A DNA stretch of 64,000 nucleotides from a virus (IMGVR_UViG_2854078061_000001:44150-108149); one strand, 5' to 3'. Positions 73 through 62,480 are shown, counted from the stretch's first letter. Numbers and translations: made by a program. Notes: generated from the letters alone by a model not told the origin.

Positions 73-1464
73 ATGAAGTTTTATGACACCTCCGCGCTTC
101 TTGATTTGGGAGCCGCCGCTTTCGAACCTGCCAGTGCAACAGCCTCTGGTGCAACAGAGCCGTTTCTGATTGCCGATATGACGCTGCACGAGCTGGAAGA
201 GATCAAGACAAGCGGCAAGAAGAGCGAAGAGATCCGCTATAAGGCCCGTACTGTAACCCGCCTGCTGGCCGAGCATCACGACGACAACACCTTTATGGTA
301 GTGGCAGTCCCCATGTCTTCCCTGTTCTATATCCTGGATGGCAAACCGATCAGCGATAACAACGACGCGACGATCATGGCAACCGCCCGCTGGTATCTGG
401 ACGAGATGAAGCGCAATCTGAATGACGCGATTGAAGCCGGACTCCCGGAAGCACAGCGACAGATCCAGGCCAACATTGATTCTTTCAGGTTCGTCACCAG
501 CGACCTAAGTTGCGCCAATATCGCCAGCGGCATTCTTGATCTGCCGATCGAGTTCTCCTATCCCGATGCAGCAGCAAGCGCCAATAATAACTACACTGGC
601 TAGACTGAAGTCACTCTTGATGAAGGCGGCGAGGAAGCCATGGCGATGGCATATCAAACCCACGATGAAGGCTATACATATCAGAATCTGTTTGACACTC
701 CAGTGAATGGCTATCTGATTGTTCGTGATCCAGACACAGTAGACGATGATATGCCGGCAGGCAATGCGGTAGGCTGGCTACGATGGAATGGCAAGAAATA
801 TGTACCACTCAAATACAAAAAGATCAGTAATCGCTTCACTGGCGACGTAAAACCACTCAATGACCAACAGAAGCTCGCATTTGATATGCTGCAGAACGAC
901 GATATTACAGTTAAAATGCTGGCTGGAACATTCGGCAGCGGCAAGACAATGCTTATGGTGTCCTCTGCCATTGATATGATCGAGAAGCACAAGGTTGAGA
1001 AGCTGATCTGGATTCGCAATAACATCGAAGTCAAGAATACCAAGGAGTTGGGTGCACTACCTGGCACTCTACTAGAGAAGCTCGGCGCTGCTTCTTTTGC
1101 TGGACCTCTGGCTGATCACTTGGGCGGCGAAGCTGGTTTGGAATACTGGATCAATAATGGGCAGGTAGAAGTAGCTCACCTTGGATTTATTCGTGGCCGC
1201 GACTACAAGAACGCAATTATTATGGTTTCAGAGGCTGAGAATCTGACCAAAGAGCATGTACAGCTGCTACTCGGCCGTGTTGGTGAAGGATCTATGCTGT
1301 GGCTTGATGGCGATCTGAAGCAGACTGACGAGGCCGTGTTTGAAAATAACAGCGGTATGCGTAAGGCAATTCAGTGTCTGGCTGGCAACCCGCACTTTGG
1401 ATATGTCTACCTGAACAAGACAGAACGCAGCGAGACCGCACAACTGGCTGACCTGTTAGACTAA
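73..1464 (+). CDS. phoH: PIN domain + PhoH-family ATPase (463 aa, read through TAG 601-603)
   Basis: N-terminal YDTSALL / NNDATI PIN motifs; GTFGSGKT Walker A, IRGRD, SEAENLT, DGDLKQTD PhoH motifs; ORFs 73-603 and 640-1464 are in frame and joined by one TAG. Confidence 0.85.
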
Positions 1465-1478
1465 GGGGGCACAGCAGA

Positions 1479-1760
1479 ATGATAGAAGTAAGAATAGACG
1501 GATTACGACCAATGGATTACATCTCTCCTACTGGCGACTGGAACTATGAAGCGATTGACGGTTTAGCGAAAGAGTTGTGTGACCGACTTCGAGAAGTTGA
1601 GACAGAACAGATACTGGAGGAATTCAAAAAATATATAGAAAACCAACATTCTGACAATATGGTTATATTAAACCAATTGCAAGCTCAATTGAATAATATA
1701 GCTACACACCGATATCTGATTACACCATTTAACAGAGGCATAGTAGCATGGGACAGATGA
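1479..1760 (+). CDS. Hypothetical protein
   Basis: 93-aa ORF with upstream AAGGGG RBS; ATGA overlap with next gene. Confidence 0.6.
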   Translation: MIEVRIDGLRPMDYISPTGDWNYEAIDGLAKELCDRLREVETEQILEEFKKYIENQHSDNMVILNQLQAQLNNIATHRYLITPFNRGIVAWDR

Positions 1761-2077
1761 GCAAAGCTAGTGAAGAAATATTTTATACAACCAATGAGTA
1801 TCTGACCTATAAGATGTCTCGATATTTTGACACTTATGTTCTGTTGCTTGGTTTAAAAGACAACTCAGGATTCTTCATGGATTTTGTCGGTGGAGCAGGA
1901 GTCCATTATCATCTATATAAGCAGACGGGACCTGCTGTATTTGCATTTATCGATGATAATTATAAGGTACTTCGTGGAGACGACGCAGAATGGATTACTA
2001 ATCTTGCTTTGAAAATATGCCAACAATATGACGAACAGCTGTTCAACGAACAATGTGTCTGTGAGACTTTGCTATAA
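1757..2077 (+). CDS. Hypothetical protein, C-terminal CVCETLL tag (array member 1)
   Basis: ATGA-coupled start; shared C-terminal motif. Confidence 0.7.
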   Translation: MSKASEEIFYTTNEYLTYKMSRYFDTYVLLLGLKDNSGFFMDFVGGAGVHYHLYKQTGPAVFAFIDDNYKVLRGDDAEWITNLALKICQQYDEQLFNEQCVCETLL

Positions 2078-2091
2078 CAGGAGAAGAAATC

Positions 2092-2511
2092 ATGCGCGTT
2101 TTATTCGTAAGGTCATCGATCTATGACACAGTATGCGACTGGTATGAACGCATGGATACTGTGCAAAAGCATCGCAAGGAGACCGCAATCTGTAAATCAC
2201 CCGAAGATTTTTGGGATATATTCAATAAAGATAAATTCGGTGCACAATATACGACATTCTATTTTGACGATAGGTTGGCGCTGACCGATACTTTTGAATT
2301 TTTCAAAGAGATCGCGCGGTTGTATGGTGAAGAGGATGCGAAATATATTTCAGAAAATAAAATGCGGCGGATCACCATGAACTATTTAATGAACAACAAT
2401 CAGTTTGACTTGTTCCAGCAGTTCTCCATCACACCCGAATGTCTGGACGATGTAATCCATGATGCTCTGGCTGATCAACAGTGTGAATGTGTGTGCAGAC
2501 CGCTATTGTAA
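2092..2511 (+). CDS. Hypothetical protein, C-terminal CVCRPLL tag (array member 2)
   Basis: AGGAG RBS; shared C-terminal motif. Confidence 0.75.
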   Translation: MRVLFVRSSIYDTVCDWYERMDTVQKHRKETAICKSPEDFWDIFNKDKFGAQYTTFYFDDRLALTDTFEFFKEIARLYGEEDAKYISENKMRRITMNYLMNNNQFDLFQQFSITPECLDDVIHDALADQQCECVCRPLL

Positions 2512-2525
2512 AGGAGAGGCAAAAT

Positions 2526-2990
2526 ATGGAAAGAATACTAACGCCACGAGGCGGTGGACGTACATATGCGATATGCGAATACGCTGTCAAGAACAATTGC
2601 AATATCTTGGTGCCGATGGGCGGGACGGCTATATTATGTGCACAGGACTATATCAAGGAAATCGCAAGGAATCTTGATATTCAATATTAGGGGTATAGGG
2701 TTGATCATCAATGCCTTATAGTAGATTTACAAAGCAGAGCTCGCGGAGAATACAGTATTCACGTGATAACAACTACTTGTCCTCCCGATAATTATCGTGG
2801 ATTGCACTTAGAGGATAAGCCACTTGTTGTTGATGATATTGACCGATGCTTTAAGTTCATGTGCTTCCCGAATGTGCGAATTGATGCCTGTTCTCTGATG
2901 ACATATGATCCGAGCGAGGTTGCGTTTACACCGCCAACTGCACCTCAAGAAGTGCAGCGGGATGAATGCGTGTGTGACAGCTTGGTATAA
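2526..2990 (+). CDS. Degenerate P-loop-like protein, C-terminal CVCDSLV tag (array member 3; 154 aa, TAG 2688-2690 read through)
   Basis: AAGGAGAGG RBS; PRGGGRT and LVVDDID resemble Walker A/B; frame open across the TAG. Confidence 0.7.
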
Positions 2991-3004
2991 CAGAGGTGCC
3001 AACA

Positions 3005-4200: not shown

Positions 4201-4476
4201 ATGAAAGAAAACGACTTTTCAAAACAGGATATTTATAATATTGGATTTGCCGTAGCTGATGCTGTGCGCGATTATGATGTAACTTACGAGGGTATCCTTG
4301 ACGCGATTCAGGTATATGCAGAATAGCAGGAACTGATCGGCAATGCATCGCTTTATGATACGTTGTGGATGGAAGATGGTACGCCCATGTCCCCTTCTTT
4401 GACACGATATTTATTTCACGAGATGTACTGCCCAGATGATTATGGTTATGATGAGGAGGACGGCGACGATGAGTGA
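4201..4476 (+). CDS. Hypothetical acidic protein (91 aa, TAG 4324-4326 read through)
   Basis: AAGGAGG RBS; MKENDFS...YAE*QELIG...DGDDE; fills an otherwise empty gap and overlaps the next start; absent from the ORF track. Confidence 0.7.
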
Positions 4477-5037: not shown

Positions 5038-7581
5038 TTGTTTAGTCCACCATTATATAGCGTACTAAAATTTAACTTGAATTATATCGTTTCTCATAAC
5101 TATAATTTTAAACTGACACCAGAAGAGATGGAGCAGTATGAGGTCTTACAGGGCGACGATATGTTGTTCAGACAAATTCGGCTCATTTCCGACGACTAGA
5201 ATAAATTCCAGCGCTTTATTATCTTTGTTGATGCAACAGGTGGCCAGAACCACCCTGATGCTATTGATCATTTAGTAGAGCATGGATTCAAATTTAATGG
5301 CCAGAAATATCTGTTCTGTGAACGTAGTGCAAGTATGGTCCGTCAGAGCATGTTAAGTTTTGTTGAGCGACATATCTACCCTGAACTTGACCGCCGCGTA
5401 AGCATGGAACTGGATTTTTCTGAGACACCCACCGTCCTGAGCAAGTATTATGCTTATCGTGGTTTGATGCTGAGTAGCTGCCACTGCCTAGAGAACTGGT
5501 ACCCCAAAATGATTGTTGTTCCAGACTATATGACAACGATCAAGAATCAGTGGATCGAGTATCTGGTAGACAAGACTGTGACGTTTAATGACCGCAAAAC
5601 AGGCAAAGAGCGTACCTGGACTCAGAAAGATATCGCCACAAAAACAGTTGACATTGATATCAACGCCTTTGATGGCGCTGGAATCTGCCACCCAAGTATC
5701 ATGCGCGAATTTGAAAAGCGTATCGGCACTTCTGAACGGATGAACAGCTTGATTTTGCGTGCTCCATATATCAAGGGTTGCTTACACGAGATTGATTACG
5801 AGCGTTTTTTTGAAGAGAACGGCGTTACAAAAATCAAGGACATCTGGGGCATGGAATATGATGTAACACCTGGCAGCGAACCAATGATTATTATTACTGC
5901 TTCAATGTACAAGGGTCTCAAATATTTCAAGAAAACTGGTACCTATTCTGACTGGGAGAGATATTGGGAACTTTTCAAGAAGTACGACAACTGCCTTGGT
6001 GTAGCTAAATGGAACTTTACGCTTGAACAAGAACCGCTTTCCACCCGTAGCAACTATCAGGTCATTCAAGATCTACAGCTCGACAATGAGTCTTTTAAGC
6101 ATCTAGCTGACGACAGCATTACCTGGTATCAGAATATTGTCAAAGGCGACCCAATTTATACATACTGCTTCCTTGGTTTACTTGCCGAGAACAACGACCC
6201 GATGAATCATTACATGGCTGCTGCCCTGCGTAACCCAGTGATGGTGAAAGAGCCTGCAATCAAAGATTATATTCACTCGCTGCTTGATAAATATCGCAAT
6301 GAGATGAAGTGCGGTCGGCTTTGGATGAATGCTACTTTTAAGTTCTGGGCTCCTGACCTTATTGCACTATTGCAGCACATTGGTGGCCTACCTGTGACTG
6401 GCTGCCTTGAAGACGGTGAGTTCTACAGCTTTGATCGTCGTGGTGTGATGGAGGGAGACCGCTTAATTGAGCGCAATCCCCATATCTCTGTTGCAGAACA
6501 TGTAAAGGCCAAGGCCGTAGACAACGAATACACCCGCAAATACTGCAGCCATCTTCAGAATGTTGCTATGGTAAATATCAAATCCATCGTGGCTTCCAGA
6601 CTCAATGGTTCGGATTTTGATGGCGACCTGGTTCTAATCATCGATAATCCGCTGATGATGAGTGGTGTTCCTGATAATATCCCCATTACACTCGATGTTG
6701 AAGATAAGATCACTGCGTTGGCAGAATGTGATATTGTGAAGAACAAAGTTGCCTGCACCATTCGCGGATTGAAGAGTTCTATTGGCGAAATTTCAAACTA
6801 CGCAACTGCATACCATAATAAGGTTCCGACCATGGAAAAGACCAAGAAGCTCTATCACGATAATATTTCGCTTTTGAGCATCTGCAACGGAAAAGCTATC
6901 GATTATGCTAAAACAGGTGTTCTATATCCGATCCCGCGTAATGTAGCAGCTTATGGTCGTCCTCTACCCTACTTTATGAAGTATGCAGGCCCTTACTACG
7001 CACGTTTACATAATCTCAGCAAGGCACATAGCAACATGAACCTGCTTTGCATGAGTCTGGAGCGTTGGGAGCGCGGTGTACGGTGGCGTAAAGAGCCCGC
7101 AGGCAGCTTTGATTGGCATATCATGTACGATCCAGAGGTCTCCTATGACCAGGCAGTCTTTGATGAGATCGAAGCCATTTTCTTGGACTTCAACAAATGC
7201 CGCAAGGAACAGCTTGAGTTCGAAAAGAAATGTCGCAACTGGCAATTATATCATAAGGACATCGAGTCGCGTATTACCAAAGAAGAGGCTAAGACATATG
7301 AGACGAACTGGCAGGCGATCTACAATGTCTACCGTAACAAGTGTAAGCTGGTGTGTCCTGATGTGAGAGAGCTGGCGAATATTCTTGTAGTGCTTTGCTA
7401 TGAGAAGTATCCCAATAAATTCAAGAAGTTTTTGTGGCACATGGCCGGCGCTGGTGTGGTCGAAAATATCAAGCCGGTTCCTGTTCAGCTGCCAGTTCAC
7501 GATCCGAACGGCGAGTACGAATACCTTGGCCAGCGATATAGTCTGGCTGAACCGAAAATTTATGAAGCGAGGGTGAAATAA
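5038..7581 (+). CDS. YonO-like single-subunit DNA-dependent RNA polymerase (847 aa, TAG 5197-5199 read through)
   Basis: Catalytic LNGSDFDGD motif, FDGAG, RAPYIKG, ERNPH, AIDYAKTG; GAGGAG RBS before TTG 5038; position upstream of the late operon as in SPbeta. Confidence 0.88.
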
Positions 7582-8121: not shown

Positions 8122-8934
8122 ATGGCATATACAACTTTCTACTGTAATGAGAATATACTGCTCGATCATTGGCAGGACTATCACGAGTCAAATCTGATGC
8201 TGCGAAATCTGCTGAAGCGAACCTCCCTCTCCCCTATTGAATGCGCCACCATTTATTATGAGCGGATGAAAAATCCTGAGTCTGTCAGCTATGACCGTAG
8301 CCACTTGATCCAGACGTTCAGCAGAGGCCGTAAAAATAACGCGCCCATACTTGACGTACATCAAGTTGTGCTTTATCAGAAAGATCTGGACTATATCACA
8401 GAGGCGCGCCGAAAGTATCATATCAACTACGCACAATTACGTGTTCTGTTTGGGGTAATATTCTTCTGCCGGCTGTATGGAAGCGATACCTTTGCCTTGG
8501 ATACCGAGTTCAAGATGAAACGTTTTGGTGGCTGCTTTGAAGAGCAGACAGAGATCATGTATTGCGCTGGGAAGAACTAGGACGACGGCTATAATACAGT
8601 GCGGGGCATGAAAGAGATTTCTGACGACTATCACCTGCTGAACAGAACCGGCACTGACGACATTGGATGCTTATACCAGTACCAAAATTTTGCCCTTGAT
8701 AAGAATGACACGATTGCGTACACGTTCAATGTGACGCTTGAAAACAATCGGCTGAATTTAAGCGCCATAGTGCGAGAGCTATTTGACCCGAAGGAATGTT
8801 ATTGCATCGTGTGTGGCGAACAGTATCACTCAGAAAAGCCAAATGCCAGCAGATATTGCAAAGGATGTGCGGCAAAGAAAGAACAGGCACGTCTAGCGAA
8901 AAAGAATGCGAATCGAAACAAACGACCGAAATGA
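8122..8934 (+). CDS. Hypothetical protein with C-terminal zinc ribbon (270 aa, TAG 8578-8580 read through)
   Basis: AAGGAGG RBS; two in-frame ORFs joined at GKN*DDGY; CIVC...CKGC. Confidence 0.75.
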
Positions 8935-9216: not shown

Positions 9217-10401
9217 ATGGACGAATTTAAGAAAGCGGACGGCGAGACCTTTGATGAATATATGATGCGGATTGGTGAGGCATGCAGCGAACGTAAGCTG
9301 ACTTAGAATCAGGCAGCAGAACTGCTGAATGAAGCAACCGGCTCAGACTATGGCGAATGCAGATATCGCAAGACCTATAAGTCGTGGAAAGATGGTTATG
9401 ACTACGCTATTGATCACGCCAACGAAGAAACGATCCAGGATGAACTACAGCGACTGAAGATTGAAAAGATCAAATTACAAGATGAACGCAATGCAGCAAA
9501 CAAAGTGTATCGCGATGTTGCCCGTGCCGAATCCATCAAGGAATTGATTCTGAAGAACGTTGCTCCGTATAACCCTGACAATTTTCTGAATGTTGTGCAA
9601 TACGAAGGCAGCGGCCACGATGTGATTGTGTGCTTGTCTGATTTACATGCTGGCGCGGGTATTGATTCGGCGTGGAATAAGTTCAACAAGGATATCCTAA
9701 AGGCTCGGCTTGAGAGTTATGCTGCACAGGTGTTCAATATCGTAGCGCGACATACAGCCGAAAAGATTCATGTGCTGCTGTTGGGCGACCTGATCAATGG
9801 GCATATCCATGTTAATACCCGCGTGCAGAACAATGAAAACAGCATTGAGCAGGTTATGACGGCTGCAGAGCTGGTAAGTAATTTTGTTGCTACACTGTAC
9901 GAGGTATGCCAGCATATTGACGTGTATTCTGTGAGTGGCAATCATTCACGAGTATTCCCCAGCAAAGAGGATCAGGTAGCAGGTGACGAACTTGAAGCAC
10001 TGATTCCGTTCTATATGAAGGCACGACTGCAAAATCTGGCTGGCATTGATATTAAAACAGAGAAGCTCGATCCGACCTTTGGTGGCTTTAAGGCTAGGAA
10101 TAGTCTTGTGATGTACGCACATGGAGATAAGGACTCCCCTGCTAACGTCGTTGAGCACCTGACACTGATGGTGAAGCAGCCAATCGACATGGTGTTCCTT
10201 GGTCACCGCCACACAAACGGCATGACAACGGTGCATGGTACGAAGGTTATTGAGAGCGGCTGCGTTTGTGGCAGCGATTCCTATGCAATTGGACTGCGCA
10301 AAAATGATGTGCCGCAGCAGGCAGTGGCTGTAATCGATGACAGCGGCCTAGAATGTCTGTACGATGTCAAGCTGGAGAAGCCAGCAAAGATAGTAATTTA
10401 A
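9217..10401 (+). CDS. Calcineurin-like metallophosphoesterase with N-terminal helical domain (394 aa, TAG 9304-9306 read through)
   Basis: SDLH, LGD, SGNH, HGD, GHRH motifs; GAGGTG RBS at 9217; KLT*NQAAELLN. Confidence 0.85.
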
Positions 10402-10561: not shown

Positions 10562-10825
10562 ATGGAAGAAAAATATCACAAAGATTTAGGAGGCGATTAC
10601 TTCTACTGCTATTCCAGACGGACAGCACTGTTTGTTCGCGCTATGGGAATTTTTTACGAAGAGATTGGAGAGCACCCGGTAACTGGCTCTGTATATACAA
10701 AATTCCGCAAGACGAAAAAACTGAATGAAGTTTTAAAACTATAGGATCAGATCAAATATCGCTTCGATGATATGATGGACGATGGAACGGTGGTGATTGG
10801 CTATGGCCAGAGTTGCCGCAGATAA
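10562..10825 (+). CDS. Small hypothetical protein (87 aa if TAG 10742-10744 is read through, otherwise 60 aa)
   Basis: AAGGAGG upstream; LKL*DQIKY; read-through here is less certain than at other sites. Confidence 0.6.
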
Positions 10826-11801
10826 GAAACCGCCTCGTATCAAGGTTCCGCCCTCTTGGAGTGGTGGCAAATGTATGTGTTGCGGAAAAATCTATGACGT
10901 GCGCAAAGGTAATTTCTCAAAAACGAAGAGTCAATGGTTTATTGGTAACGACGGATACCTCCCGTGGTGCAATGAGTGCCGTGAGAAGATGTTTGAGTTT
11001 TATGTTAAGAAGTATAACGATGAAGATGAAGCGATTGACCGTCTGGCTATGATGTTCGATACCTATGTAAATGATAAATTGCTTGACGCATCAGAACATT
11101 CTGTGGCATCTGCTTTAAAAATTAACACCTATATGGGACGGCTTAATATACGTCAGTATGCAGATAAATCTTATGACGATGTGATCGACCAGAAGAAAAA
11201 AGACGCTTTGGCTGCCGGTGATACAAAGGGGACAAAGGTCACTCTGAAGATGAGAAAATTCTGGGGTACTGGTCTGGATGAAAAAGATTATTTATTCCTT
11301 GATGAGCACTATCAAAATCTTATCACTAGACATGAATGTAAGACGGCCGCACAAGAAATTCTGTTCAAACGCATTGCAAAGGCAGAACTTAATTGCGATA
11401 AGGCTGATGCCACTGGCGACACAAAGAAAATAAAAGAAGCAAACGACAACCTGCAGAACCTGATGGGGTCCGCTCAGATCAAACCGAATCAGACGAACGA
11501 TAACGCATTGGCTGAAACGAATACTTTTGGCACGCTGATTCAGAAATAGGAAGAGGAAGAGCCGATTCCAGAACCGTCGCCAGAGTGGCAGGACGTTGAT
11601 GGTATCGGTAAGTATTTTAGAGTGTGGGTGCTGGGTACGTTGCTTAAGATGTTCAACTTGAAGAATCCATATCAAGACGAATTTGACGAAGAGTTTGAAC
11701 GATATACTGCTCATAAACCAGAGACAAATGAGGACGATGACACAGATACTAGCCTCCGCGAAACTATTTTCGGTATTGGCGAAGGCGGTGGTTCCGCATG
11801 A
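10803..11801 (+). CDS. Zinc-finger protein upstream of terminase, putative small terminase (YonG-like; TAG 11547-11549 read through)
   Basis: CMCC...CNEC; GTLIQK*EEEEPIPE; read-through frame ends in ATGA overlap with the terminase start. Confidence 0.75.
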
Positions 11802-19586: not shown

Positions 19587-19597
19587 GGCGGTGGGAT

Positions 19598-20614
19598 ATG
19601 ACAAGATCTCAATATAGAGCCATGCTGAAACAGGATGGAGAGACGCAGCGCGACAGGGTGGTCAATAAGGCACTCCATGATACGCGCTTTTTAGCGCCAG
19701 TCAATCCTTCTTATAAAGAAGTAACGATAGATGACGTACCCCGCTGGGTAAATATTATATCATCTACTGTTACAAACCAGAAAATATTCCGCACAAGACC
19801 TGGTGAGGATTTTGAGATCGGCAGCATTATGTACTGGGGTAAGAGCCACTGGCTGATTACAGAACGTGATGCAGACGATGAGATTACCGTGCGCGGCCGC
19901 ATTCAGATCTGCCAGAAACAAATCGTGTGGCAGGATGACCAGACAAAAAAGATCGTATCTCTATGGGCAACTGTGGAAAAGCCGTATTACTCCAACCTGA
20001 GTGAGAATAAGGTAATGAGTTATTCAACCCGTGAATTCCGCATTCAAACCCCGTTCGACGAGTATTCTGCCCGTCTGAACATTGGAAAACGGCTGATGTT
20101 GGAGATCGTCAATGGAGAACCAAAGACCTATCGAATCACGTCGATTGACCAGATGACTGGCCGAATTGACTATGATAATGACCAGATCGGGTTCCTTTCG
20201 TTTAACGTTGAACAGGATCTTTACAACGCAGAAACAGACAATGTAGAGAAAATGATCTGCAATTATGTGCCGGAAGATGCTTCCGATAACGTGGAAATCA
20301 CCTATCCTGACGACAACACAGTAGACGACAGAGTGCTTTCGATAGAGTTTACGGGCGAACCGTCCATCCCAACGGGCGGATTTGGCAAGCTGTTTACTGC
20401 AAAAATCGATGGCGAAGTGTACGACGGCGCAGAATAGACGCTTACCGGCGATTGTACTCCTGCTGGAGTATGTTTCAAAGGCGGTAATACGACTACGACA
20501 GGTGCAAAGTGTAAGATCACTTGTGTGGATGATTCTAAGCTGATTGGACAAGTCGTGGTACTGACGGTTAAAGCAGCCGGCCTTACCGAAAAGATCGAAT
20601 TGGAGGTGATCTGA
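19598..20614 (+). CDS. Head closure protein with C-terminal Ig-like domain (338 aa, TAG 20435-20437 read through)
   Basis: Read-through ends 1 nt before the next ATG and contains its RBS; DGAE*TLT fits an Ig-fold W strand. Confidence 0.75.
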
Positions 20615-30709: not shown

Positions 30710-30738
30710 TTGACAGCTGACGCACTGGTGGTTATAAT
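30710..30738 (+). promoter_or_regulatory. Consensus SigA promoter inside the intron
   Basis: TTGACA-N17-TATAAT. Confidence 0.9.
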
Positions 30739-30780
30739 GAAAATACAATCGTATAAACTCATTTTACGGAGGTATTTATC

Positions 30781-48100: not shown

Positions 48101-51100
48101 GGCAGAGAAATGCCCCGATCTGCGTATCATCAAGATCTCCGCACCTACTTTCACAACTGGCAAGAAGAACGAGGTCGCCAACACTACGATCCAGCAGATC
48201 TATAAGAATGGTCGTGCTAAGGAGGATAACTGGACTGCTACCGGCTCCCACAAGGGTCAAGGCACCAGCTCCGACCACTATGGCGCATCTGCTCGAAATA
48301 TTGATATTAACTGCAAGGGCGGCTTTACGTTTGGTGATGACACTACCGGTGACACCTATGCACTGACCGAAAATAGCGTTCCTGAGAAGTATTTTAACAT
48401 CAAAGTCAATGTTGCTTCCTCTGAGAATGCAAACAACTCCCTGTTGGCGGATGATTTCAATGAATTTAACCCCTATGTGCGTCAGGCTAAGAAGGATAAT
48501 CCCAAAGTGCGTGATACCATGGCGTTCTATCCCTGTGTTGTGTTTATTCAGGAGACCGATACCACCAATGCGACCGTATTTAACGATGGTCAGTGGCACT
48601 TCTATGCCTGCGGCGACATTGGCAACTCCAAAAAGAACAATGATACGATGGGTATGGACCCCGAGAATCACAAGGAATTTATCGTTGAGATTGACAACAA
48701 CGCCGATGAGCAAACCCGCTTCCTGAGCGGCGATTTCTCACAGGAAACTTGGGATGGCGACCACTCCTTTGAGTTCCGTTACAGCAACCCTGCCTGCACT
48801 GAGGAAGAAATCGAGGCTGGCAAACAGGCGTGGATCACAGCTCAGAACTGGGTGGTGAATGCGGATGACGAGGAATTCAAGGCACATTTCAAGGATCACT
48901 TTGATCTGGATTCTGCTATTTTCCATTATCTGTTTACTGAGCGTCACACCATGGTTGATAACCGTGCAAAGAACGTGTTCCCGCACACCAGCGATCTGGT
49001 TCACTGGGACTTCTGCTTTGACTACGATAACGATACCGCCATGGGCAATGATAACGAGGGTGGTCTGACTCTGACTTATGGCTATGAGGACACTGATACT
49101 ATCGGCACAAAGAATGTGTTTAACGCTGCGGATTCCAAGCTGTGGTGCAAGCTGCGTGACCTGTTCCCCGATGAGATAGCAGCGATGTTCCGCAACCGTG
49201 AGAATGCGCTGGCATGGAGTGCGACTCGTATTTTGAAAAAGTTCGAGGAATATCAGGATGTGAAGCCTGAAAAGCTTTGGATTATGGATATGCGGCGCAA
49301 ATATTTCCGCACCTACGAAGATCCCACCATCAATACCACCAGCTATCTGCCTATGATGCATGGTAACAAGCGGCATCAGCGTCGGCAGTTCCAGCGTTAT
49401 CAGGAAAAGTACATGACATCTAAGTATTCCGGTTCTGCTGCAACCAGTGATGATATGACCATTCGTGGCTATACTCCAACCAACTGGACTGGCGTGAAAC
49501 CGGACGGCACATTCCATATCACACCATACGCTGATACCTACGTCTCTGTTCTGTACGGCTCCAACCCTGTGAAGGTGCGTGGCAAGCGCGGACAGACCTA
49601 CACGATTGAATGCCCCATCACCGCAATGAATGATACTGAAGTTTATATCTATAACGCTTCTATCATTCAGAGCATTGGTGATATCTCTGGCTTCTATCCT
49701 GGCTATGTTGACTTCAGCCACGGTGTTAAGCTGACAGAGCTGAAAGTAGGTTCCGGTGTGAGCGGCTATAAGAATACGAACATGACCGATTTCGCTGTCG
49801 GTAATAACACTCTGCTGGAACATTTGAACTTGCAGAACGTGCCGAACTTGAAGAAATCTATTGGTCTGACCGGATGCACCAGCCTGACTGAGTTCTATGC
49901 TGACGGCTCTGGTATTACCGGTGTCTCTTTTGCAAGCGGCGGCAAGATCAAAATCGCCCACCTGCCTGCAATTGCCAGCTTGACCGCAAAGAACCTGAAC
50001 TATCTGACTGACCTGACGATTGAGGATTACACCAATATCACTACGTTGACCGTTGAGAAGTGTGCAACCATCGATCTGAAAGATATGCTGGGCAAGTGCA
50101 CCAACCTGAACCGTGTGCGTATTACCGGTATTGATTGGGAACTGGCTGATACTTCCCTGCTGAATCGCCTGTACGCAATGAGCGGTCTGGATGAAAATGG
50201 CTACAACACTGACAATTCTGTCGTGGAAGGCAAAGTTCATGTACCCATCATCCGTGAGCGTGAGAAGCTGTTGTACACAGAGCGCTGGCCTGATTTGGAG
50301 ATCACCTACAACACCATGATCAACCAGTATGCTTGGAAGTTCGTGAATAAGGATGGCGCTGTTCTGGATATCCAGTATATTGACAAGGGCGAGCGTGCAG
50401 TTGACCCTGTGACCCGCTCTGACAATCCTATCCCGACACCTACCTTCCCGAGTACCATCAGTACGGTATTTACATTCAGTGGCTGGGACACCGAGTTCAC
50501 TCCTGTTTTTGAAAATCAGACTGTTACTGCTGTATACGATGAATCTGTGCGTCAGTATCGTGTACGCTATATGAATCGCGGCGCTGTTCTACAGCAGACA
50601 ACTGCTCCGTATGGCTCTATGGTTCTGTATGATGGCGACACTCCGACCTATACAAGCGAAGAGACTGCTTATAAGTATTATCTATTCAGTGGCTGGGACA
50701 AAGGCGGCTATGTCAATGGCGACAAGGATATCAATGCTGTTTACGACATATGCGAATACGTCAGCGGCTACTTCAGAGACAAGCAGCTGAGTGACCTACG
50801 CCCTGTTGAGATTTATGCCATGACCAAGGTGAATCTGGAGCAGAGTGTTGTTTCTGACAAAGACGCTATCACCATCAAGATGGGCAACGACTTCACCTTT
50901 AGCGACGTGGAAGAGAAAGTTTTGTTCAACGAGCCGAAGATCTTTACTGGCAAGAATTATGTCGATACCGGCGTATCTCTGTTGGCTGAAGACCGCAGCT
51001 GGGTTATGGCGCTGGACTATCGAATCGACGAAGATTCTGCCGCAAACTCTGTGATTGCTCAGTGCTTCCAGACCAATGGCATGAATGGTTTCCGCTTCTG

Positions 51101-51974
51101 GGTCAACAACGGCTCCAAGGTTGCATGGGGTACTGAATCCACCACCGGCGCACATCTTGGTTCTCGTGATATGATCGTTCTGCGCCATACCAAGGGCGAA
51201 AATGGTATTCACGTTTATGCGGCGAATACCACTGCTGCTGAAATCGGCTATATTCAGTTGAATCGTACTCGCACCACACAGACAAATGCCACTTTGGTGT
51301 TTGGTTGTGCTAAGGCAGACGACGGCGCTTACGAGCGTTACGCAAAAGGCACAATCTACTGGGGCAAGCTCTGGTATACCGATCTGGGTGACGCTGCCTG
51401 CCGGAAGTTGGCCGCATGGACACATGAGGACTTCACTTTCGAGGCTTGTGGCTTCAAACAGTATTACCTGAGCGATAATTCCAACAAGCGTTGTTCTATC
51501 AGCTTTATTCAGGCCGGACTGCTTGGTCAGAAGATGGCTCTGAATACTGGTTCCACTAACACTGGCGGCTGGGCAGATGCGAATATCCGTACATTCCTTG
51601 ACGGTCGTATTCTGAATGCTCTCCCGATTGGTTGGCAACAGATCATCAAGCAGGTCAAGGTTGGCAGTACCATTGGCGATAAGAGCAGCGAAGTTGTGAC
51701 TGCGGACAGTTATTTCTATCTGCCATCTGTGGCCGAATTGTTCCCCTCTCAGAATGTTGAGCCTTATATTTACGAAGGTACGGCAATCAGCTTTATGACT
51801 GATAATACCAGCCGCATCTGCAATGACGAGAATGGCAATCCCGCTGCATATTGGACGCGAAGCCCGAATGCTCAGTATGGCAGCTATTTCTGGTCTGTGA
51901 CTGTGACTGGCGAATATTACGGATTTACCCCTGCAAATAACGAACAGGGTATCCGCTTGATGTTCAGCGTTTAA
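45159..51974 (+). CDS. Giant multidomain tail/adhesin protein (BppU-like N-terminus, Ig/LamG, CotH-kinase-like, LRR-like, DUF6273-like C-terminus)
   Basis: 2271 aa; RYYDGIDL; HTMVDNRAKN...DYDNDT; LxxLxL repeats; FSGWD repeats; YWTRSP. Confidence 0.75.
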   Translation: MALSFGESKRLAAKKAASPANVSVDDIDVATLELNDEDQIAVYDDNGEETFERSGNYTWFADYSDDQWSYIDKNKDIQLDANQINITQESNSQVIPFEMPRYYDGIDLLQMTIQIHYLNADREENYASPINVSYSNTKIRFYWLVANDATAKDGELQFEIMASGAVNVPNTSTTKSYLWRTRPNGRLNVLKSLTGKQMVDPSGNDWYTQFLATMSQKVGEAQVAASAAEKSAQDAKNAVASVDEKLAQFYKKDEVDGFVTMLRGEIAAVDGLANFNVQYDNDTRTLTFLNGAEEITKIKLNTDPSAEWVSMYNGIVDNKISTAVTPVQTELTEYKTANDAAVQELKNSVGDLPETLKSSYYNKKATDALLDKKADKTTVDVLSSDVSGLKNTVGGIQTSVDLANADIAKIQETLKDFKPDENSGREYDITYEDSKLNLLENGTVKTTVIIEGGGGGGGSTSTITIERIGESSIAVVKGDTATVEFNFTSVDNSGEDTGDATGVWYVGNTKVATSTVYQGKNSFDITQYLHNGDNKIKLQVTDSVGSMGSKTWNINIVEFYLESIFDDSLVYSGEVTFRFTPYGNINKDVSFTLDGKKLGSVTTAVTGRQMTYAIPAQRHGAHLLEVTMTANINGKAVTSNTIYKDIMWAEEGNNTPIISCATKEFTAKQYSTTGIVYTVYNPASSTASITLEVDGIKTSTLTVGRTAQTWSFKSSDIGTHTLTITCGATIKSITAKIEDLGITIEPVKTGLMLDFNPAGRSNADVNRLWSSGSNKMTVSDNFDWVNGGYQIDEDGDTYFCVKAGTTATISYKLFADDAKKSGKNFKLVFKTTNVRNYDATAVTCLNGGVGLNIQAQKVTLTSHQNSIDLPICEDDFLEFEFNILPDKQFREMVLWCDGIPCRVELYDTSDSFTQAAPVGITIGSDDCDVIVYRMKSYGMNLTDDEILDNFIADAKNAEEMVSRYMRNDITDASGELTPDLLAEKCPDLRIIKISAPTFTTGKKNEVANTTIQQIYKNGRAKEDNWTATGSHKGQGTSSDHYGASARNIDINCKGGFTFGDDTTGDTYALTENSVPEKYFNIKVNVASSENANNSLLADDFNEFNPYVRQAKKDNPKVRDTMAFYPCVVFIQETDTTNATVFNDGQWHFYACGDIGNSKKNNDTMGMDPENHKEFIVEIDNNADEQTRFLSGDFSQETWDGDHSFEFRYSNPACTEEEIEAGKQAWITAQNWVVNADDEEFKAHFKDHFDLDSAIFHYLFTERHTMVDNRAKNVFPHTSDLVHWDFCFDYDNDTAMGNDNEGGLTLTYGYEDTDTIGTKNVFNAADSKLWCKLRDLFPDEIAAMFRNRENALAWSATRILKKFEEYQDVKPEKLWIMDMRRKYFRTYEDPTINTTSYLPMMHGNKRHQRRQFQRYQEKYMTSKYSGSAATSDDMTIRGYTPTNWTGVKPDGTFHITPYADTYVSVLYGSNPVKVRGKRGQTYTIECPITAMNDTEVYIYNASIIQSIGDISGFYPGYVDFSHGVKLTELKVGSGVSGYKNTNMTDFAVGNNTLLEHLNLQNVPNLKKSIGLTGCTSLTEFYADGSGITGVSFASGGKIKIAHLPAIASLTAKNLNYLTDLTIEDYTNITTLTVEKCATIDLKDMLGKCTNLNRVRITGIDWELADTSLLNRLYAMSGLDENGYNTDNSVVEGKVHVPIIREREKLLYTERWPDLEITYNTMINQYAWKFVNKDGAVLDIQYIDKGERAVDPVTRSDNPIPTPTFPSTISTVFTFSGWDTEFTPVFENQTVTAVYDESVRQYRVRYMNRGAVLQQTTAPYGSMVLYDGDTPTYTSEETAYKYYLFSGWDKGGYVNGDKDINAVYDICEYVSGYFRDKQLSDLRPVEIYAMTKVNLEQSVVSDKDAITIKMGNDFTFSDVEEKVLFNEPKIFTGKNYVDTGVSLLAEDRSWVMALDYRIDEDSAANSVIAQCFQTNGMNGFRFWVNNGSKVAWGTESTTGAHLGSRDMIVLRHTKGENGIHVYAANTTAAEIGYIQLNRTRTTQTNATLVFGCAKADDGAYERYAKGTIYWGKLWYTDLGDAACRKLAAWTHEDFTFEACGFKQYYLSDNSNKRCSISFIQAGLLGQKMALNTGSTNTGGWADANIRTFLDGRILNALPIGWQQIIKQVKVGSTIGDKSSEVVTADSYFYLPSVAELFPSQNVEPYIYEGTAISFMTDNTSRICNDENGNPAAYWTRSPNAQYGSYFWSVTVTGEYYGFTPANNEQGIRLMFSV

Positions 51975-54659: not shown

Positions 54660-56084
54660 ATGGCAAATTTATCATTACGCGAGGTCGCACAGTCTCAGCT
54701 GGATCAAGCTCCTGTGATTGACGGCCAACTGATCGTATGTACTGATACTGGAAGCACTTATCGAGATATCGGCACAAGACGAATTCAAATCAGCAAAGAC
54801 TTGGAGATCGTAAGCTCGCTTCCGCTGGCTCCTTTGTCTAATAAGATTTACTACCTGCGTCCAGACAGCTTGTATGTTTATAGTAGCGATGACTGGATTC
54901 TTTTGAACCCATCAAAATTCACACTGGAAGCCGACAAAAACGCAGTCAATGGCGAAGTTAACATCAATTTAATCCTGAATGGTACAGCGCAGGATAAAAT
55001 CAAAATCGCTGGCGGTGGTGTGACTACAGTGACGACTGGCGAGACAGGCGATATCACGATTGATACCCCGCACCCGGATGAACTGCTGGCTGCACTGACG
55101 AATGAAGAGATCGACGCGATCACTGGCGGTATGGTTGATGATAGCGGCAATCCTCTGCCTACGCCGCAGGTTGTGGTGGATGCGACACTGACTGTATCTG
55201 GACATGCTGCTGATGCTAAAGCTGTTGGTGATGCTCTGACTGGGAAAGCGAGTGCAGAACATAACCACGATGACCGCTATTATACAGAAGATGAAATCAA
55301 TGTAAAGCTATTAAAGAAAAGCGATGATGGTCACACTCATGATGAGCGGTACTACCAGCAGAATGAGATCGATGAGAAGCTGAAGGTAAAGGCAAATACA
55401 ATCAATATCCACACACTAACTATTCCGACTACGAGTTAGCTTACTGACGATACGGTGGACCGATATTCAAAGTATATTGACCTCGACATCGACGGGATCA
55501 CCTCAAAGGATGTTATTTCTATCAGCGTGACACCGGCCAGTGCAAAAGTGGCCTCTTACGCCCAGTTTGCAAACCCGGAGACCTTTGATGGATATGTGCG
55601 TCTGAGAGCTGTATCAGTTCCAACAACTGAAATTACAGCTCAGTATTATATCGTGCAGGGCGGCGGACAAACAGATAGCGGTAGTGGTACGGTTGTTGAG
55701 GGATATACCAAGGCACAGGTGGACAATAAACTAAGTGAAAAAGTGTCATACAAAGATGTTTTATCACTTGAAGAGATCTCAACAAATGAAAATACTGCTA
55801 AAAAAATCGCTTCTGCAGAAGCATTAAAAAACAAAATCGGATGTGTAAGCCTTCCTATAAGTGGAGTAAAATTAAAAAATAAAACTGGAGAATGTAATTG
55901 GACAGTTCTTGATATTTCATTACCAGATGGGGCAATCGCGATAGGTCACGCAATGACAGGCGCTTGGCAGGAAGGTGCTAGCTACGAATTGTTAGATAGA
56001 AATAAATTAACCATTTCGAGCTCCTTGGTAACCGAACTACCAACAAATCGTGGAGATATGCTGATATACTATTACATTCCATAA
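54660..56084 (+). CDS. Tail fibre protein (474 aa, TAG 55437-55439 read through)
   Basis: AADAKAVGD, HNHDDRYY / HTHDERYY repeats; LTIPTTS*LTD. Confidence 0.75.
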
Positions 56085-57230: not shown

Positions 57231-58655
57231 ATGAACGATGAAAAAAAAAGTTGGCTAGACAGAGCGGGTACGGTTCACCTCTGGAAAACGATTGAGGCTA
57301 TGCTCGGTACAAAGGTAGATAAAATCGAAGGGTTCGGCTTATCCAGCAACGACTATACAACAGAAGAAAAGAAGAAACTTGCTAGTTTAAGCGACCCTAA
57401 TGTAGCCACCACTGAAAATAATGGTTTGATGAGCTCGGCTGATAAAGCAAAGCTGGATGGTATTGAAGCTGGAGCTAATAATTATACTCACCCGGTATAC
57501 GAAGCAAAACAGGCCGGATTATATCGCATCAGTGTTGATAATACAGGTCATGTGGCAACAGCAGATAAAATGACGAGTGAAGAGTTGACTGCAGAGGGTG
57601 TCTCCCCCGCCGATCATACGCATGACTTGGGCGTATTGGTAGATACACTGGAGACGAGTGCTGACGCTGTTGAAGATGCTGACACTGTTATGGTTGGCGC
57701 TATAGTTACGAGTGATGATGGCAGTGCGACTACGAAGTACACCCGCAGGCCACTGGCTGCTTTATGGAACTGGATCAAAGCGAAGGCAGATACGTTGTAT
57801 GCTGCTGTTGGACATACACACAAGGTAAACGAGCTCGAAAATTATGATACACATGTGTATAACCCAACTTTAGATCGTACCAAGCGGACTGTTTTGGCTG
57901 CACCTACAGGAACTGATGGTCCTGCCACATTCAGAGCATTGGATAAGAATGATGTGGGGTTGGGAAATGTGGATAATGTAGCCGCACTACCGTTAACTGG
58001 TGGAACGATGAGCGGAAGAATTGTAAGGAATACGCCTTCTTCATGGATAGATGCTCGTAATACCACCGCTGTGTATCAAGCCGCTCCGTCTGATGGTTGT
58101 TATAAATCAGTTGTTGGACAGGGAACTCAAAATGGTGTTTAGACAATTGGAGCACTCAGTGGGCAAGAATATTTGTATTTTGAATATACTTCTGATTCAG
58201 ATTATGCAAGTGGAAATAATGTCGCAACAAGTACCATTTTGGAACCACGAGGCGGCACTATTATTACAACTGCAAATATCGGAGAACAGACGATTGGCAA
58301 TGCAAACGCAGCGTCATATATTTCAAATCAAGGAAATCAAACAGCAATAAATTCACCTCTTGACGTAAAAGGACTTTCTGTATATCAAGTATATAACAAT
58401 GGATATCCAACATCTTACGGTAATGTTTTAAGCATTGGCGGCACTGGTGACGGTCAGATCCTTGCTGGTTGGAGCGGCGGCAATAACGGTATTGAGCGTT
58501 TGTATTATCGTAACCGGCGTGATATGTGTTCAACGTAGTCGGGATGGAGGACTGTGGCTTTTACAACAGATATCACACAAATTATCTCTCAAACCAGTGA
58601 CCCGGGTGCCGGAAGTAGTCTTGCGACTGGCACAGTGCTTTTGGTATATGCGTAA
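57231..58655 (+). CDS. Tail fibre protein (474 aa, TAGs 58140-58142 and 58536-58538 read through)
   Basis: GLSSNDYT, GLMSSADKAKLDGI, NNYTHP, DVGLGNVDN, LPLTGGTMSG; NGV*TIG and ST*SGWRTVAF; ends at the next RBS. Confidence 0.8.
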
Positions 58656-59518: not shown

Positions 59519-60211
59519 ATGGAAGAAACAATGATCCGCCCCGGGTACACAACGACGACCGAGACCGACGGCACCCCGGCAGATTACAGCGCAATCGAGG
59601 CTGCGGTGAACGCACACAACCAAAATGCACAGCCCGGGGAAGCTTACTAGGGCATTCGCCTATGCGGGACGGAGTATGAAGTGTATGAATACGGTGAAGT
59701 GCCCCAGCCGCCGACCACTGAAGAACTTTTTGAACAGCTAAAGCTCTATAAAGAAACAAAAATTAAAGAAAGTAAGATGTGTCTTTCTGAATATCTTGCA
59801 TCTCATCCAATTCAATGGACTGATGGCAAATATTACAGTGTCACCAGTGAGAAGCAGGCTTTGCTTACAAGCAACCTTGCCCTGTACCAAATCTCTACAG
59901 CTGCCGGACAGCCTTTTAAACTGACATGGAATTCTACCGGCGATGAATGTGTGGAGTGGACTTATGACGATCTGGCAGCTCTGGCACTGGCGATTGGTAT
60001 GTATGTGAAGCCCTTTGTCTCTCATCAGCAGGAATTGGAGGTTGACATCAAAGCATGTATGACAAGTGAAGAGGTAGATGCTATCGCTATCGTATATGGT
60101 AGTGATGATGATTCTACTGAGAATCCTGAAAGTCCTGATGAATCCGGGTCTACAGACGAAACGACCAATGCAGAAATAAAGGAGGACGCTAATGAGCAAC
60201 AAACTTCGTGA
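59519..60211 (+). CDS. Fibre assembly-like protein, DUF4376-like (230 aa, TAG 59648-59650 read through)
   Basis: AAAGGAG RBS at 59519; GEAY*GIR; LTWNSTG. Confidence 0.7.
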
Positions 60212-60750: not shown

Positions 60751-60755
60751 CTCTC

Positions 60756-60784
60756 ACTATATCACGTTGATAGGAATTTGTCAA
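60756..60784 (-). promoter_or_regulatory. SigA promoter (minus strand)
   Basis: TTGACA-N17-TATAGT with extended TG. Confidence 0.75.
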
Positions 60785-60799
60785 TTGAAAGGAGGAATT

Positions 60800-60955
60800 A
60801 TGGCGCAGGAAGTCTTAAAGCCGCTGTTATTAGACGAAACAGGCAAAGAAATCGTGATAGCACTGAACGCTATTGTTACACAGCTGACCGAGATCAATGA
60901 AACACTGAAAGCCAAAAATACAGACAGTGGTACGAATGGTGGTGAGAAGACATGA
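60800..60955 (+). CDS. Small hypothetical protein (51 aa)
   Basis: AAAGGAGG RBS before ATG 60800. Confidence 0.7.
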   Translation: MAQEVLKPLLLDETGKEIVIALNAIVTQLTEINETLKAKNTDSGTNGGEKT

Positions 60956-61455
60956 TAGGAAGTTTGAATGCCGCACCTCACGTCTATTCTTTTACCATAC
61001 AGCAGTTGTAGACCATGTTGCTGAGTATCTGTGGTGGCATCACTGCTATTTCAGCCGCTATCGCTGTTATCATCAAGGCAATCAATCATGCGAAAGCACC
61101 AGATGACAAACAGAACGAGCGGCTGAATGCCCACGATGCAGAACTTGAGAAGATCAATAGAAAACTAGGTGCAGATAAAGACAGGCTCGACCTGTTTCAA
61201 TCCAAGCTGGTCTCATTAGAAGAGCACCAGAAAGAAAACAGTATCACGCTGGAAGTACATGACCGTAAAATTCTCGAATCAGAACAGCGTATCAGTCACA
61301 GCGAGCAAGGCAATAATGTCACCATGAAGGCTCTGCTTGCACTCCTCAGTCACGGCATCGACGGCAACGCGATCGAGCCAATGAAGGAGGCCAAGGCTGC
61401 ACTTGAGAACTATTTGATCGATGGTCAGAACAACACAAAGAATATTACGAACTAA
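60952..61455 (+). CDS. Holin-like/XhlA-like TM plus coiled-coil protein (167 aa, TAG 61009-61011 read through)
   Basis: ATGA overlap and GGTGGTGA RBS at 60952, none at 61015; ALLSHGIDGN. Confidence 0.7.
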
Positions 61456-61499
61456 CCCGAGACTGCGTGTCCCGGGCTTTTTTATTTTGGAGGTTTATT

Positions 61500-61820
61500 A
61501 TGATGGATATTATCAATGAGCTGGTTTCTGTTATCGTCCGCCTGGTTATTGCTGGCGCTGGTACTGCCTTTATGGCCTATGGTATCCCCTATCTGAAGAA
61601 AATCGGTGTGTACAAGCTAGTACAGATTGCTGTTCGTGCTGCAGAGAAGCTGGGCGCAACCGGCGCTATCGAAAAAGCCGACAAGAAGAAATACGTTATG
61701 GAAGCTCTGGAGCATCTGGGTGTGAAGATCACTCCGACTATTGAGACCATGATTGAGGCTGCTGTCAAAGAGATGGACATCCAGAACGATAAAATCAAGG
61801 ACGAGCTCAAAAAGAATTGA
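61500..61820 (+). CDS. Holin, LL-H family
   Basis: One TM helix; AVRAAEKL, KKKYV, IEAAVKEM. Confidence 0.85.
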   Translation: MMDIINELVSVIVRLVIAGAGTAFMAYGIPYLKKIGVYKLVQIAVRAAEKLGATGAIEKADKKKYVMEALEHLGVKITPTIETMIEAAVKEMDIQNDKIKDELKKN

Positions 61821-61832
61821 AGGTGTGATGAA

Positions 61833-62480
61833 ATGGGTGTTATTACATACTCTATGAAGAAGGACTAGAACAAAAAGGTGTCGGCTCATTTTTCCGTCTA
61901 TGAGTTCGCCTGCTCCGATAAGAGTGATACAGTTCTAGTCGATAGTCAGCTGATTGAAGTGCTAGAACAGATCCGCGCTCACTTCGGCGCTCCTGTCCAT
62001 ATCAACTCTGGGTATCGTACTCCTGCCTATAACATCTCCATCGGTGGAAGCCCTCGTAGCCAGCATTGTAAAGGAACTGCCGCTGATATCTGGATCAAGG
62101 GCGTTGACCCGATTCGGATCGCACTGTATGTATCTTCCCTGCCCTACTTTGCCAAGAGTGGTGGTATTGGATATTATAGCCGTGCTGTGCTTACGAGTGG
62201 CTTTGTTCATGTTGATGTGCGCACCACACGCAGCCGCTGGATCAGTAAATCCGGCACGAAATATATTAGCGTAGCCAATCTTATGCCGACTATCAGACAG
62301 GGTGCGAAAGACGCTATGAATGGTGCTTCTTATGCTGTAACTGTACTACAACGGCATCTTGGTGTTAAAGCTGATGGCATTTTTGGCGTGAATACCAAGG
62401 CGAAGCTGATTGAGTATCAGAAAGGACATGGGCTGGCTGCAGATGGCATCTGTGGGCCTGCTACATGGGGTTCGTTTTGA
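61833..62480 (+). CDS. Endolysin: peptidase M15A plus peptidoglycan-binding domain (215 aa, TAG 61866-61868 read through)
   Basis: INSGYRT, SQH..G.AADI, FVHVDVR; ADGIFG / ADGICGPATW; AAGGTG RBS before ATG 61833. Confidence 0.88.

Follow-up and report, generated by a model that had tools for sequence, protein, structure and literature searches.

Twenty open reading frames (ORFs) on one strand of a 64-kb stretch of viral DNA are interrupted by the amber codon TAG, nearly all of them just once, which raises the question of what the codon specifies there and why it is so evenly spread. The stretch, IMGVR_UViG_2854078061_000001:44150-108149 (the window; positions are counted from its first letter), is the right-hand end of a single 108,149-bp virus record that is classed as a provirus and 73% complete. 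Its plus strand contains 22 in-frame TAGs in these 20 ORFs, or in 19 genes if the two halves of the tape measure are merged, and 17 of the 19 have exactly one, as had been counted in the original prediction made from the window sequence. That prediction took the ambers for a translational lock in which each low-copy lytic gene is silenced in the lysogen, or has its stoichiometry set, by partial and conditional suppression. We consider it probable that TAG is instead a rare synonym for tryptophan that is read by a phage tRNA with anticodon CUA (tRNA(CUA)), that the per-gene pattern is a by-product of low TAG density and that dependence on the tRNA exists at the level of a whole genome arm.

When TAG is read through, 54 plus-strand genes fill the window. 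They include PhoH-like, YonO-like RNA polymerase, exonuclease, large terminase, portal and capsid-type genes, a tape measure present as two large ORFs, tail genes, a holin and an endolysin. The closest cultured relatives are phages of Firmicutes, for example of Brevibacillus, Bacillus and Lactococcus, and human faeces are the source of the closest records; prophage copies for host identification were sought in 185,579 species genomes and none was found. The window is best explained as the rightward arm of a temperate siphophage that infects gut Firmicutes and belongs to a family whose genomes measure ~145–150 kb, and this reading as a whole seems likely to us. Its gene content suggests that the plus-strand arm is the late one.

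TAG takes the place of TGG at conserved tryptophan positions

The window was compared with 73 related loci around the portal gene and with ten complete relatives of 144–151 kb (relatives are denoted by G numbers). All 54 plus-strand genes stop with TAA or TGA and TAG is never a terminator, while within the rightward (late) genes it makes up ~9% of the Trp codons. Nine of the ten window TAG sites at 3.5–25 kb have TAG or TGG only across the 73 loci. At 16 of the 19 alignable window sites the TAG-free relatives, which are without the suppressor tRNA, have TGG, and the other three sites lie at variable positions. Against a TAG-free reference genome, 36 of the 54 distinct late-arm TAG sites of the family align with Trp and each other residue with at most four. 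Glutamine, the meaning of TAG in genetic code 15, finds no such agreement, as CAG or CAA occurs at a few variable sites only. Alignment with conserved Trp, together with a Trp-type tRNA as the candidate reader, indicates by sequence comparison that TAG means Trp in this phage. A solved PhoH structure was consulted for the residue at the TAG of the PhoH-like gene, and the alignment stops short of that codon (codon 177).

In-frame TAG is linked to a phage tRNA with anticodon CUA

A tRNA(CUA) is carried by 7 of 7 complete relatives with in-frame TAG, between tRNA-Ser(UGA) and tRNA-Lys(UUU), and three of these bearers are 93–97% identical to the record over aligned blocks. In TAG-free relatives the same slot holds tRNA-Trp(CCA) in two genomes and neither tRNA in a third; G005 has both tRNA(CUA) and tRNA-Trp(CCA). 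In a sample of 50 records, 34 had 4–11 TAGs in the 21-kb portal region and 16 had none. Among those at least 90% complete, tRNA(CUA) was present in 18 of 19 TAG-bearing records, the exception having one tRNA of any kind, and in 0 of 10 TAG-free records. Across these genomes the occurrence of in-frame TAG appears firmly linked to that of tRNA(CUA).

The nearest non-suppressor kin of the CUA tRNAs are phage tRNA-Trp genes (70–77% identity). They form three sequence types, all with G1-U72, G73 and an encoded CCA end, and have in common a C2-G71 pair that is absent from phage tRNA-Trp(CCA) genes. Neither a release factor nor a tryptophanyl-tRNA synthetase (TrpRS) encoded by the phage family was found; as there is no family-encoded TrpRS, tRNA(CUA) would be charged by the host enzyme. 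A Firmicute host without glutaminyl-tRNA synthetase (GlnRS) would remove the route to mischarging with Gln.

The record itself is without the first ~40 kb of the family genome, where complete relatives hold the first tRNA cluster including the tRNA(CUA) slot. It aligns to G001 only from G001 position 40,550 on. Its first 3 kb (G000:C1:1-3000, left of the window) encode a large serine recombinase (560 aa, integrase type) and have no counterpart in the 50 relatives searched. As this foreign 3 kb adjoins family coordinate ~40.5 kb, the record lacks the tyrosine integrase as well as the first tRNA cluster and the suppressor within it.

Other tRNA features of the family were also recorded. Three different tRNA(CUA) types occupy this same slot in G001, G005 and G009, whose portal proteins are 98–99% identical. 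In the second tRNA cluster of G002, G003 and G004, ARAGORN predicts a tmRNA of ~385 nt with the tag ANYNSYRCAA or ANNNSYRCAA (L080 6702-7088, L081 5829-6212 and L082 2409-2794); roughly at this place, an unusual 91-nt "tRNA-Ile(UAU)" bearing an extra arm is found in the record and in G001. A tRNA-like gene to the left of the window (G000:C1:26287-26355, minus strand) matches the Rfam tRNA model with a score of 49 bits. A normal arm plus variable loop would not fit into its short anticodon region, and ARAGORN calls it Gln(CUG) only when relaxed.

TAG codons are split between the two genome arms

Aligned Trp sites were counted per arm against the genes of a TAG-free relative. In suppressor-type genomes TAG occupies 5–14 of ~100–160 aligned Trp sites on the plus-strand arm and 0–1 of ~190–230 on the minus-strand arm (0 of 87 in this record), with Fisher P values from 2e-2 to 2e-6 in eight genomes. 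A Trp-aligned TAG on the minus arm was seen in one gene only, in three relatives. This arm contains both tRNA clusters, the tyrosine integrase, NAD-salvage genes and an anti-repressor-like gene, and the tyrosine integrase at the left end of G001, G003 and G044 has no internal stop. The arm split is a robust pattern. Within the window the minus-strand ORFs and the insert ORF 31390-31971 are free of TAG, as first noted, and for the minus strand this holds far beyond the window. As a terminator TAG is rare throughout the family, ending 0–3 of 160–176 genes (1–3 in complete genomes), TAG-free relatives included; since TAG stops are rare even in TAG-free members, capture of the codon would have been cheap.

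We propose that in part of the family the tRNA-Trp slot holds a tRNA with anticodon CUA, by which UAG would be read as tryptophan. TAG would then be a rare, mildly disfavoured synonym of TGG, at 4–14% of Trp codons. Only genes whose translation coincides with the presence of the phage tRNA, those of the plus-strand arm, would retain it, and it would be purged from the minus-strand arm with its integrase, tRNA clusters and NAD-salvage genes; it would also be absent from one very Trp-rich, codon-optimised virion gene. Because the arm with the integrase and tRNA genes is TAG-free, late-arm proteins would depend on tRNA(CUA), a lock in effect: the arm-wide need for the suppressor would block late-protein translation wherever the tRNA is absent or silent. 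The translational lock originally suggested is thus plausible for the arm as a whole, where it has precedent in proposals for other recoded phages, but is not supported gene by gene. We infer the timing of tRNA expression, as well as any selective benefit of the lock.

A bolder form of this proposal, which is possible though doubtful, places the family in the middle of a code change: the switch from CCA to CUA in the tRNA-Trp slot would have given UAG the meaning Trp with neither a synthetase nor a release factor of the phage's own, and selection would then have turned the codon into a tRNA-gated switch of the whole late arm. The late arm, including the YonO-like RNA polymerase, would remain untranslatable until the leftward arm expresses the suppressor. 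Lysogens would thereby be shielded from leaky late expression, and the phages isolated from their TAG-free sister phages.

The even spread over genes is not restored by evolution

Several observations weigh against TAG being a rare Trp synonym served by a phage tRNA. No tRNA(CUA) was found in the 108-kb record by ARAGORN and Rfam, which detected six or seven tRNAs, and read-through in this provirus would follow from relatives 93–97% identical to it. Tryptophan at TAG is predicted from codon comparison, and in E. coli a tRNA-Trp whose anticodon is CUA accepts Gln instead (PMC2965240). The TAGs are also more evenly spread than by-product status would suggest: when 22 TAGs were drawn from 255 Trp codons, a mean of 15.0 genes was hit, compared to 20 observed (P = 0.005). 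A similar excess was found in G003 (20 TAGs in 20 genes, P = 1e-4), G009 (17 in 17, P = 0.001) and G005 (20 in 18, P = 0.014), so that genes already holding a TAG may be under some selection not to gain another.

Such a spread would be expected if selection kept about one amber in each low-copy lytic gene, with partial and conditional suppression silencing the lysogen or tuning yield. The excess in the window persists with the tape measure merged (P = 0.0135) and without the gene for a 2,271-aa protein (P = 0.016), and the spread agrees with a null that gives all genes the same chance of being hit (P = 0.20). Four of 12 genes with a single Trp codon use TAG for it (P = 0.016), and the four short genes in which TAG had been named as the only candidate Trp codon (2487-2990, 10562-10825, 20616-21113 and 60952-61455) indeed have no other. 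TAG is found in the phage RNA polymerase, terminase, portal, tape-measure and endolysin genes, and the arm with the integrase and tRNA genes is free of it.

Control of this kind, gene by gene, is nevertheless unlikely. TAG occurs in only 20 of 50 Trp-containing plus-strand genes, the holin has none and the endolysin has one in 2 of 10 genomes only. Some genes of G001 and G044 hold two or three TAGs, and the spread is not significantly even in G001 (21 TAGs in 15 genes, two with three TAGs), G044 (23 in 18), G017 (10 in 9) or G040 (6 in 6). As the genomes share many TAG sites and are not independent samples, the test was restricted to lineage-specific TAGs, which are recent and independent. These hit a summed 102 genes compared to 101.6 under the null (P = 0.51) and do not favour TAG-free genes. 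Over the whole family, TAG occurs in one or more genomes at 52 of 246 conserved Trp sites; the genes ever hit number 30 compared to 26.6 expected (P = 0.11), and genes richer in Trp do not have a lower rate of TAG per Trp codon (rho = −0.05). Special conservation of single TAG sites was rejected as well, as 5 of 14 window sites are kept in the distant G044, within the prediction of a two-state turnover model. With both the lineage-specific and the family-wide tests null, the regularity is real in this genome but is not a rule restored by evolution. The even spread in four genomes is largely one historical sample, and "about one per gene" follows mainly from low TAG density plus a few TAG-poor genes. 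The predicted one TAG per gene thus exceeds random Trp sampling here and fails as a general rule, and the idea that selection maintains it or uses it to set stoichiometry is unsupported, given that new TAGs fall at random and relatives have genes with two or three.

A host that reads UAG as Trp, with the phage following the host code and needing no tRNA of its own, would agree with a record in which no tRNA(CUA) is found and for which no host was identified. This is very improbable: the minus-strand arm has 0–1 TAG over 87–226 aligned Trp sites, sister phages without tRNA(CUA) have zero in-frame TAG and every suppressor-type complete genome encodes the tRNA. Equally hard to credit are real stops, whether nonsense mutations in a decaying prophage or boundaries between separate gene pairs. 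The provirus class of the record, its incompleteness, its missing tRNA region and its foreign left end could be taken as decay, and no homology runs across TAG 58140, which could be a true stop between two in-frame ORFs, as PHROG profiles match that gene only at residues 19–148 and 354–468. However, all genes are free of internal TAA and TGA, TAGs at identical sites are found again in genomes that are complete and in ones that have terminal repeats, and the codon replaced by TAG is specifically TGG. Frame and homology continue across the TAGs, with PHROG profiles spanning them in the PhoH, exonuclease, terminase, portal, tape-measure and endolysin genes.

TAG-poor genes, codon context and turnover

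TAG use differs among genes (P = 0.0005), driven by the gene for the 2,271-aa virion or tail protein (0 of 38 sites), without which P = 0.03. The 38 TGG and zero TAG originally reported for it were confirmed, and 6 of 6 suppressor-type genomes carrying the gene have 36–38 TGG and no TAG. Its codon usage is strongly G-ending (CAG 93%). The gene is 96–99% identical between lineages, with neighbouring genes at about 61%; since the protein is 96% identical to that of G003 and its tail neighbours ~61%, it appears to be a recently exchanged module. Its freedom from TAG fits two readings that are inseparable here: a codon that is decoded poorly may be shut out of codon-optimised genes in heavy use, or TAG may have to be kept out of a module that passes between phages with and without the codon.

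The capsid-type gene was likewise correctly described as having no Trp codon. It has none in 10 of 10 relatives either, TAG-free ones included, and is therefore uninformative on TAG avoidance; its homologue in Bacillus phage vB_BanS-Thrax5 is annotated as the major capsid protein. The other head and putative tube genes have 1–5 Trp codons each, some with TAGs in relatives. The suggested avoidance of high-copy genes is thus not demonstrable, resting almost wholly on the 2,271-aa gene, with the others at 0–5 Trp codons. With codon bias as a proxy for expression, median splits gave no TAG difference. A class of high G-ending codon usage defined post hoc was TAG-poor (4 TAG and 58 TGG-only sites, compared to 52 and 98 in the middle class; P = 7e-6), with 38 of its 62 sites coming from the 2,271-aa gene and 4 of 24 being TAG without it.

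A purine after TAG had been proposed as a context favouring suppression. The count of 19 of 22 was reproduced, yet the enrichment over TGG is not significant in the window (86% vs 66%, P = 0.058) or over 54 family sites (81% vs 70%, P = 0.12), and cannot be told apart from the purine excess that first codon positions show in general. TAG shows no 5′ bias within genes (mean relative position 0.49 vs 0.53 for TGG, P = 0.50). TGG/TAG differences between suppressor-type genomes accumulate at 0.1–0.5 times the rate of Lys, Glu and Gln A/G synonymous differences, so that turnover appears to be about as expected for a synonymous codon near 9%. Many of the TAG positions are shared among related phages; they turn over at the rate of a rare synonymous codon, and lineage-specific ones are random by gene. 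At least three changes are required on the portal tree to account for the TAG-using state, in line with the mosaic exchange observed elsewhere.

Comparison with known recoding systems

Recoded gut phages with their own suppressor tRNA, crAss-like phages among them, read TAG as Gln (code 15) or TGA as Trp (code 4) (bioRxiv 10.1101/2021.08.26.457843; crAss-like phages, PMC7886860), and phAss-1 is a gut phage with TAG read as Gln (PMC10607447). According to the preprint on them, only these two changes were seen in phages whose code is unlike that of the host (bioRxiv 10.1101/2021.08.26.457843), and a lock on the translation of late and lysis genes by recoding was proposed for them (Borges et al., bioRxiv 10.1101/2021.08.26.457843). 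No report of TAG to Trp in a phage was found in the literature searched, where phage stop-to-sense recoding appears only as TAG to Gln, TGA to Trp and TGA to Gly.

The present family resembles the recoded gut phages in having in-frame stops in conserved late genes, a phage-encoded suppressor tRNA (here in relatives), a recoded stop that is not used as a terminator, and an integrase and early genes in the standard code. It differs from them in the amino acid, Trp rather than Gln, and in a suppressor that is a tRNA-Trp derivative in the tRNA-Trp slot; in TAGs that are sparse (~9% of Trp codons here) and polymorphic among sister phages, some of which are TAG-free; and in that no release factor or TrpRS was found.

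TAG means Trp, and TGG still means Trp, in NCBI genetic code 32 of Balanophoraceae plastids, for which the literature also mentions UAG to Trp. That code belongs to the plastid genome of a parasitic plant, applies genome-wide and has no temporal split, and no evolutionary connection exists. The E. coli amber suppressor Su7 (supU), a tRNA-Trp with CUA, loses recognition by TrpRS and is charged by GlnRS (PMC2965240). The phage tRNA(CUA) has the same CCA to CUA change on a tRNA-Trp body; unlike Su7, its codon comparisons point to Trp and the phage CUA tRNAs share the C2-G71 pair. In Streptomyces, the rare codon TTA is read by one developmentally regulated tRNA-Leu, the product of bldA. There too a rare codon confined to late-acting genes creates dependence on a single tRNA gene, although TTA is a sense codon in a cellular genome with no code change, and the likeness is one of analogy only.

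In the present family this recoding architecture operates with TAG to Trp, apparently by way of the host's own TrpRS. Sister phages 82–99% identical in the portal protein include zero-TAG forms with a normal tRNA-Trp, and offer a natural series for the start of codon reassignment, in which the first accepting genes, the speed of site turnover and the cost could be followed. In such phages standard gene callers would split genes, and translation with code 15 would place Gln at Trp positions.

Features of the window and neighbouring genes

The coordinates are collected in Table 1. The product of 5038-7581 (847 aa) matches Pfam RdRP PF05183 (E = 1e-16), the fold of the YonO-type single-subunit RNA polymerases of SPbeta-like phages. 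Its alleles in relatives are only 65–72% identical, with TAG at a differing codon in each. The tape measure consists of ORFs of 1,858 aa (24683-30259) and 2,342 aa (32574-39602) parted by a 2.3-kb insert (30260-32573); in G001 the distance between the halves is ~6.7 kb. No Rfam match to a group I intron was obtained at E ≤ 0.01 within 29800-33000, and the statistics were therefore run with the halves both split and merged.

Table 1. In-frame TAG codons and other features of the window. Portal loci are the 73 related loci around the portal gene.
Feature	Position	Strand	Gene and context	Relatives
In-frame TAG	601..603	+	Codon 177, PhoH-like gene 73-1464; PHROG match residues 28-461	TGG in G040, G017, G044 and 3/3 TAG-free relatives; TAG in G001, G005, G009, G003
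In-frame TAG	2688..2690	+	Codon 68 of 2487-2990; sole Trp codon	Variable: TAT, CGA, GAA, AGA, ATT
In-frame TAG	4324..4326	+	Codon 42 of 4201-4476	Portal loci 17 TAG, 21 TGG; TGG in all TAG-free relatives
In-frame TAG	5197..5199	+	Codon 54 of 5038-7581, YonO-like single-subunit RNA polymerase	Variable: TAC, TAT, GAC, GAT; other alleles have TAG at codon 20, 114, 306 or 325
In-frame TAG	8578..8580	+	Codon 153 of 8122-8934	TAG in 8/8 suppressor-type genomes, TGG in 3/3 TAG-free; portal loci 41 TAG, 27 TGG
In-frame TAG	9304..9306	+	Codon 30, exonuclease gene 9217-10401; PHROG match residues 25-387	TAG or TGG only
In-frame TAG	10742..10744	+	Codon 61 of 10562-10825; sole Trp codon	Portal loci 41 TAG, 29 TGG
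In-frame TAG	11547..11549	+	Codon 251 of 10797-11801; PHROG match residues 25-300	Portal loci 40 TAG, 30 TGG
In-frame TAG	13142..13144	+	Codon 449, large terminase 11798-13555; terminase PHROG match residues 18-552	Portal loci 34 TAG, 39 TGG
In-frame TAG	14530..14532	+	Codon 326, portal gene 13555-15078; portal PHROG match residues 29-499	Portal loci only 8 TAG vs 64 TGG, hence a recent TGG-to-TAG change
In-frame TAG	20435..20437	+	Codon 288 of 19574-20614	Portal loci 6 TAG, 59 TGG; G003 and G044 have TAG at codon 88 in place of codon 288
In-frame TAG	21024..21026	+	Codon 137 of 20616-21113; sole Trp codon	Portal loci 16 TAG, 48 TGG
In-frame TAG	28685..28687	+	Codon 1335, first tape-measure ORF 24683-30259; tape-measure PHROG matches span codon	TGG in G040, G017, G002, G004
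In-frame TAG	32973..32975	+	Codon 134, second tape-measure ORF 32574-39602; variable region	TTA in G005 and G009
In-frame TAG	37287..37289	+	Codon 1572 of 32574-39602; PHROG match residues 649-1768	TAG in G001, G005, G009, G044; variable in others
In-frame TAG	43536..43538	+	Codon 292, tail gene 42663-45143	TGG in G003, G040, G004; TGT in G002; gene has three TAGs in G001 and in G044
In-frame TAG	55437..55439	+	Codon 262, tail-fibre-like gene 54654-56084; PHROG match residues 237-339	TGG in G044 and G030
TAG	58140..58142	+	Codon 304 of 57231-58655; least certain read-through	TAG in G001 too
In-frame TAG	58536..58538	+	Codon 436 of 57231-58655; tail-fibre PHROG matches residues 354-468	
In-frame TAG	59648..59650	+	Codon 44 of 59519-60211	TGG in G001, G030
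In-frame TAG	61009..61011	+	Codon 20 of 60952-61455; sole Trp codon	TAG in G001, G005, G009, G003; TGG in G002, G030
In-frame TAG	61866..61868	+	Codon 12, endolysin gene 61833-62480; endolysin PHROG match residues 4-160	TAG only in this phage and G005; TGG in 8 other genomes
Major-capsid-type gene	17554..18549	+	0 TGG, 0 TAG	0 TGG, 0 TAG in 10/10, TAG-free included
Insert ORF	30682..31341	-	No TAG	No family match
Insert ORF	31390-31971	+	No TAG	
2,271-aa virion or tail protein	45159..51974	+	38 TGG, zero TAG; DUF6273 C-terminus (Pfam)	
Holin (Holin_LLH)	61467..61820	+	Pfam PF09682; one TGG, zero TAG	
Right-end ORF	62963..64000	-	No TAG; matches PHROG 6160 (function unknown)	

To the left of the window, in the leftward arm of the record, genes for nicotinamide phosphoribosyltransferase, ribose-phosphate pyrophosphokinase and NAD synthetase (G000:C1:6499-11514) make up an NAD-regeneration set.

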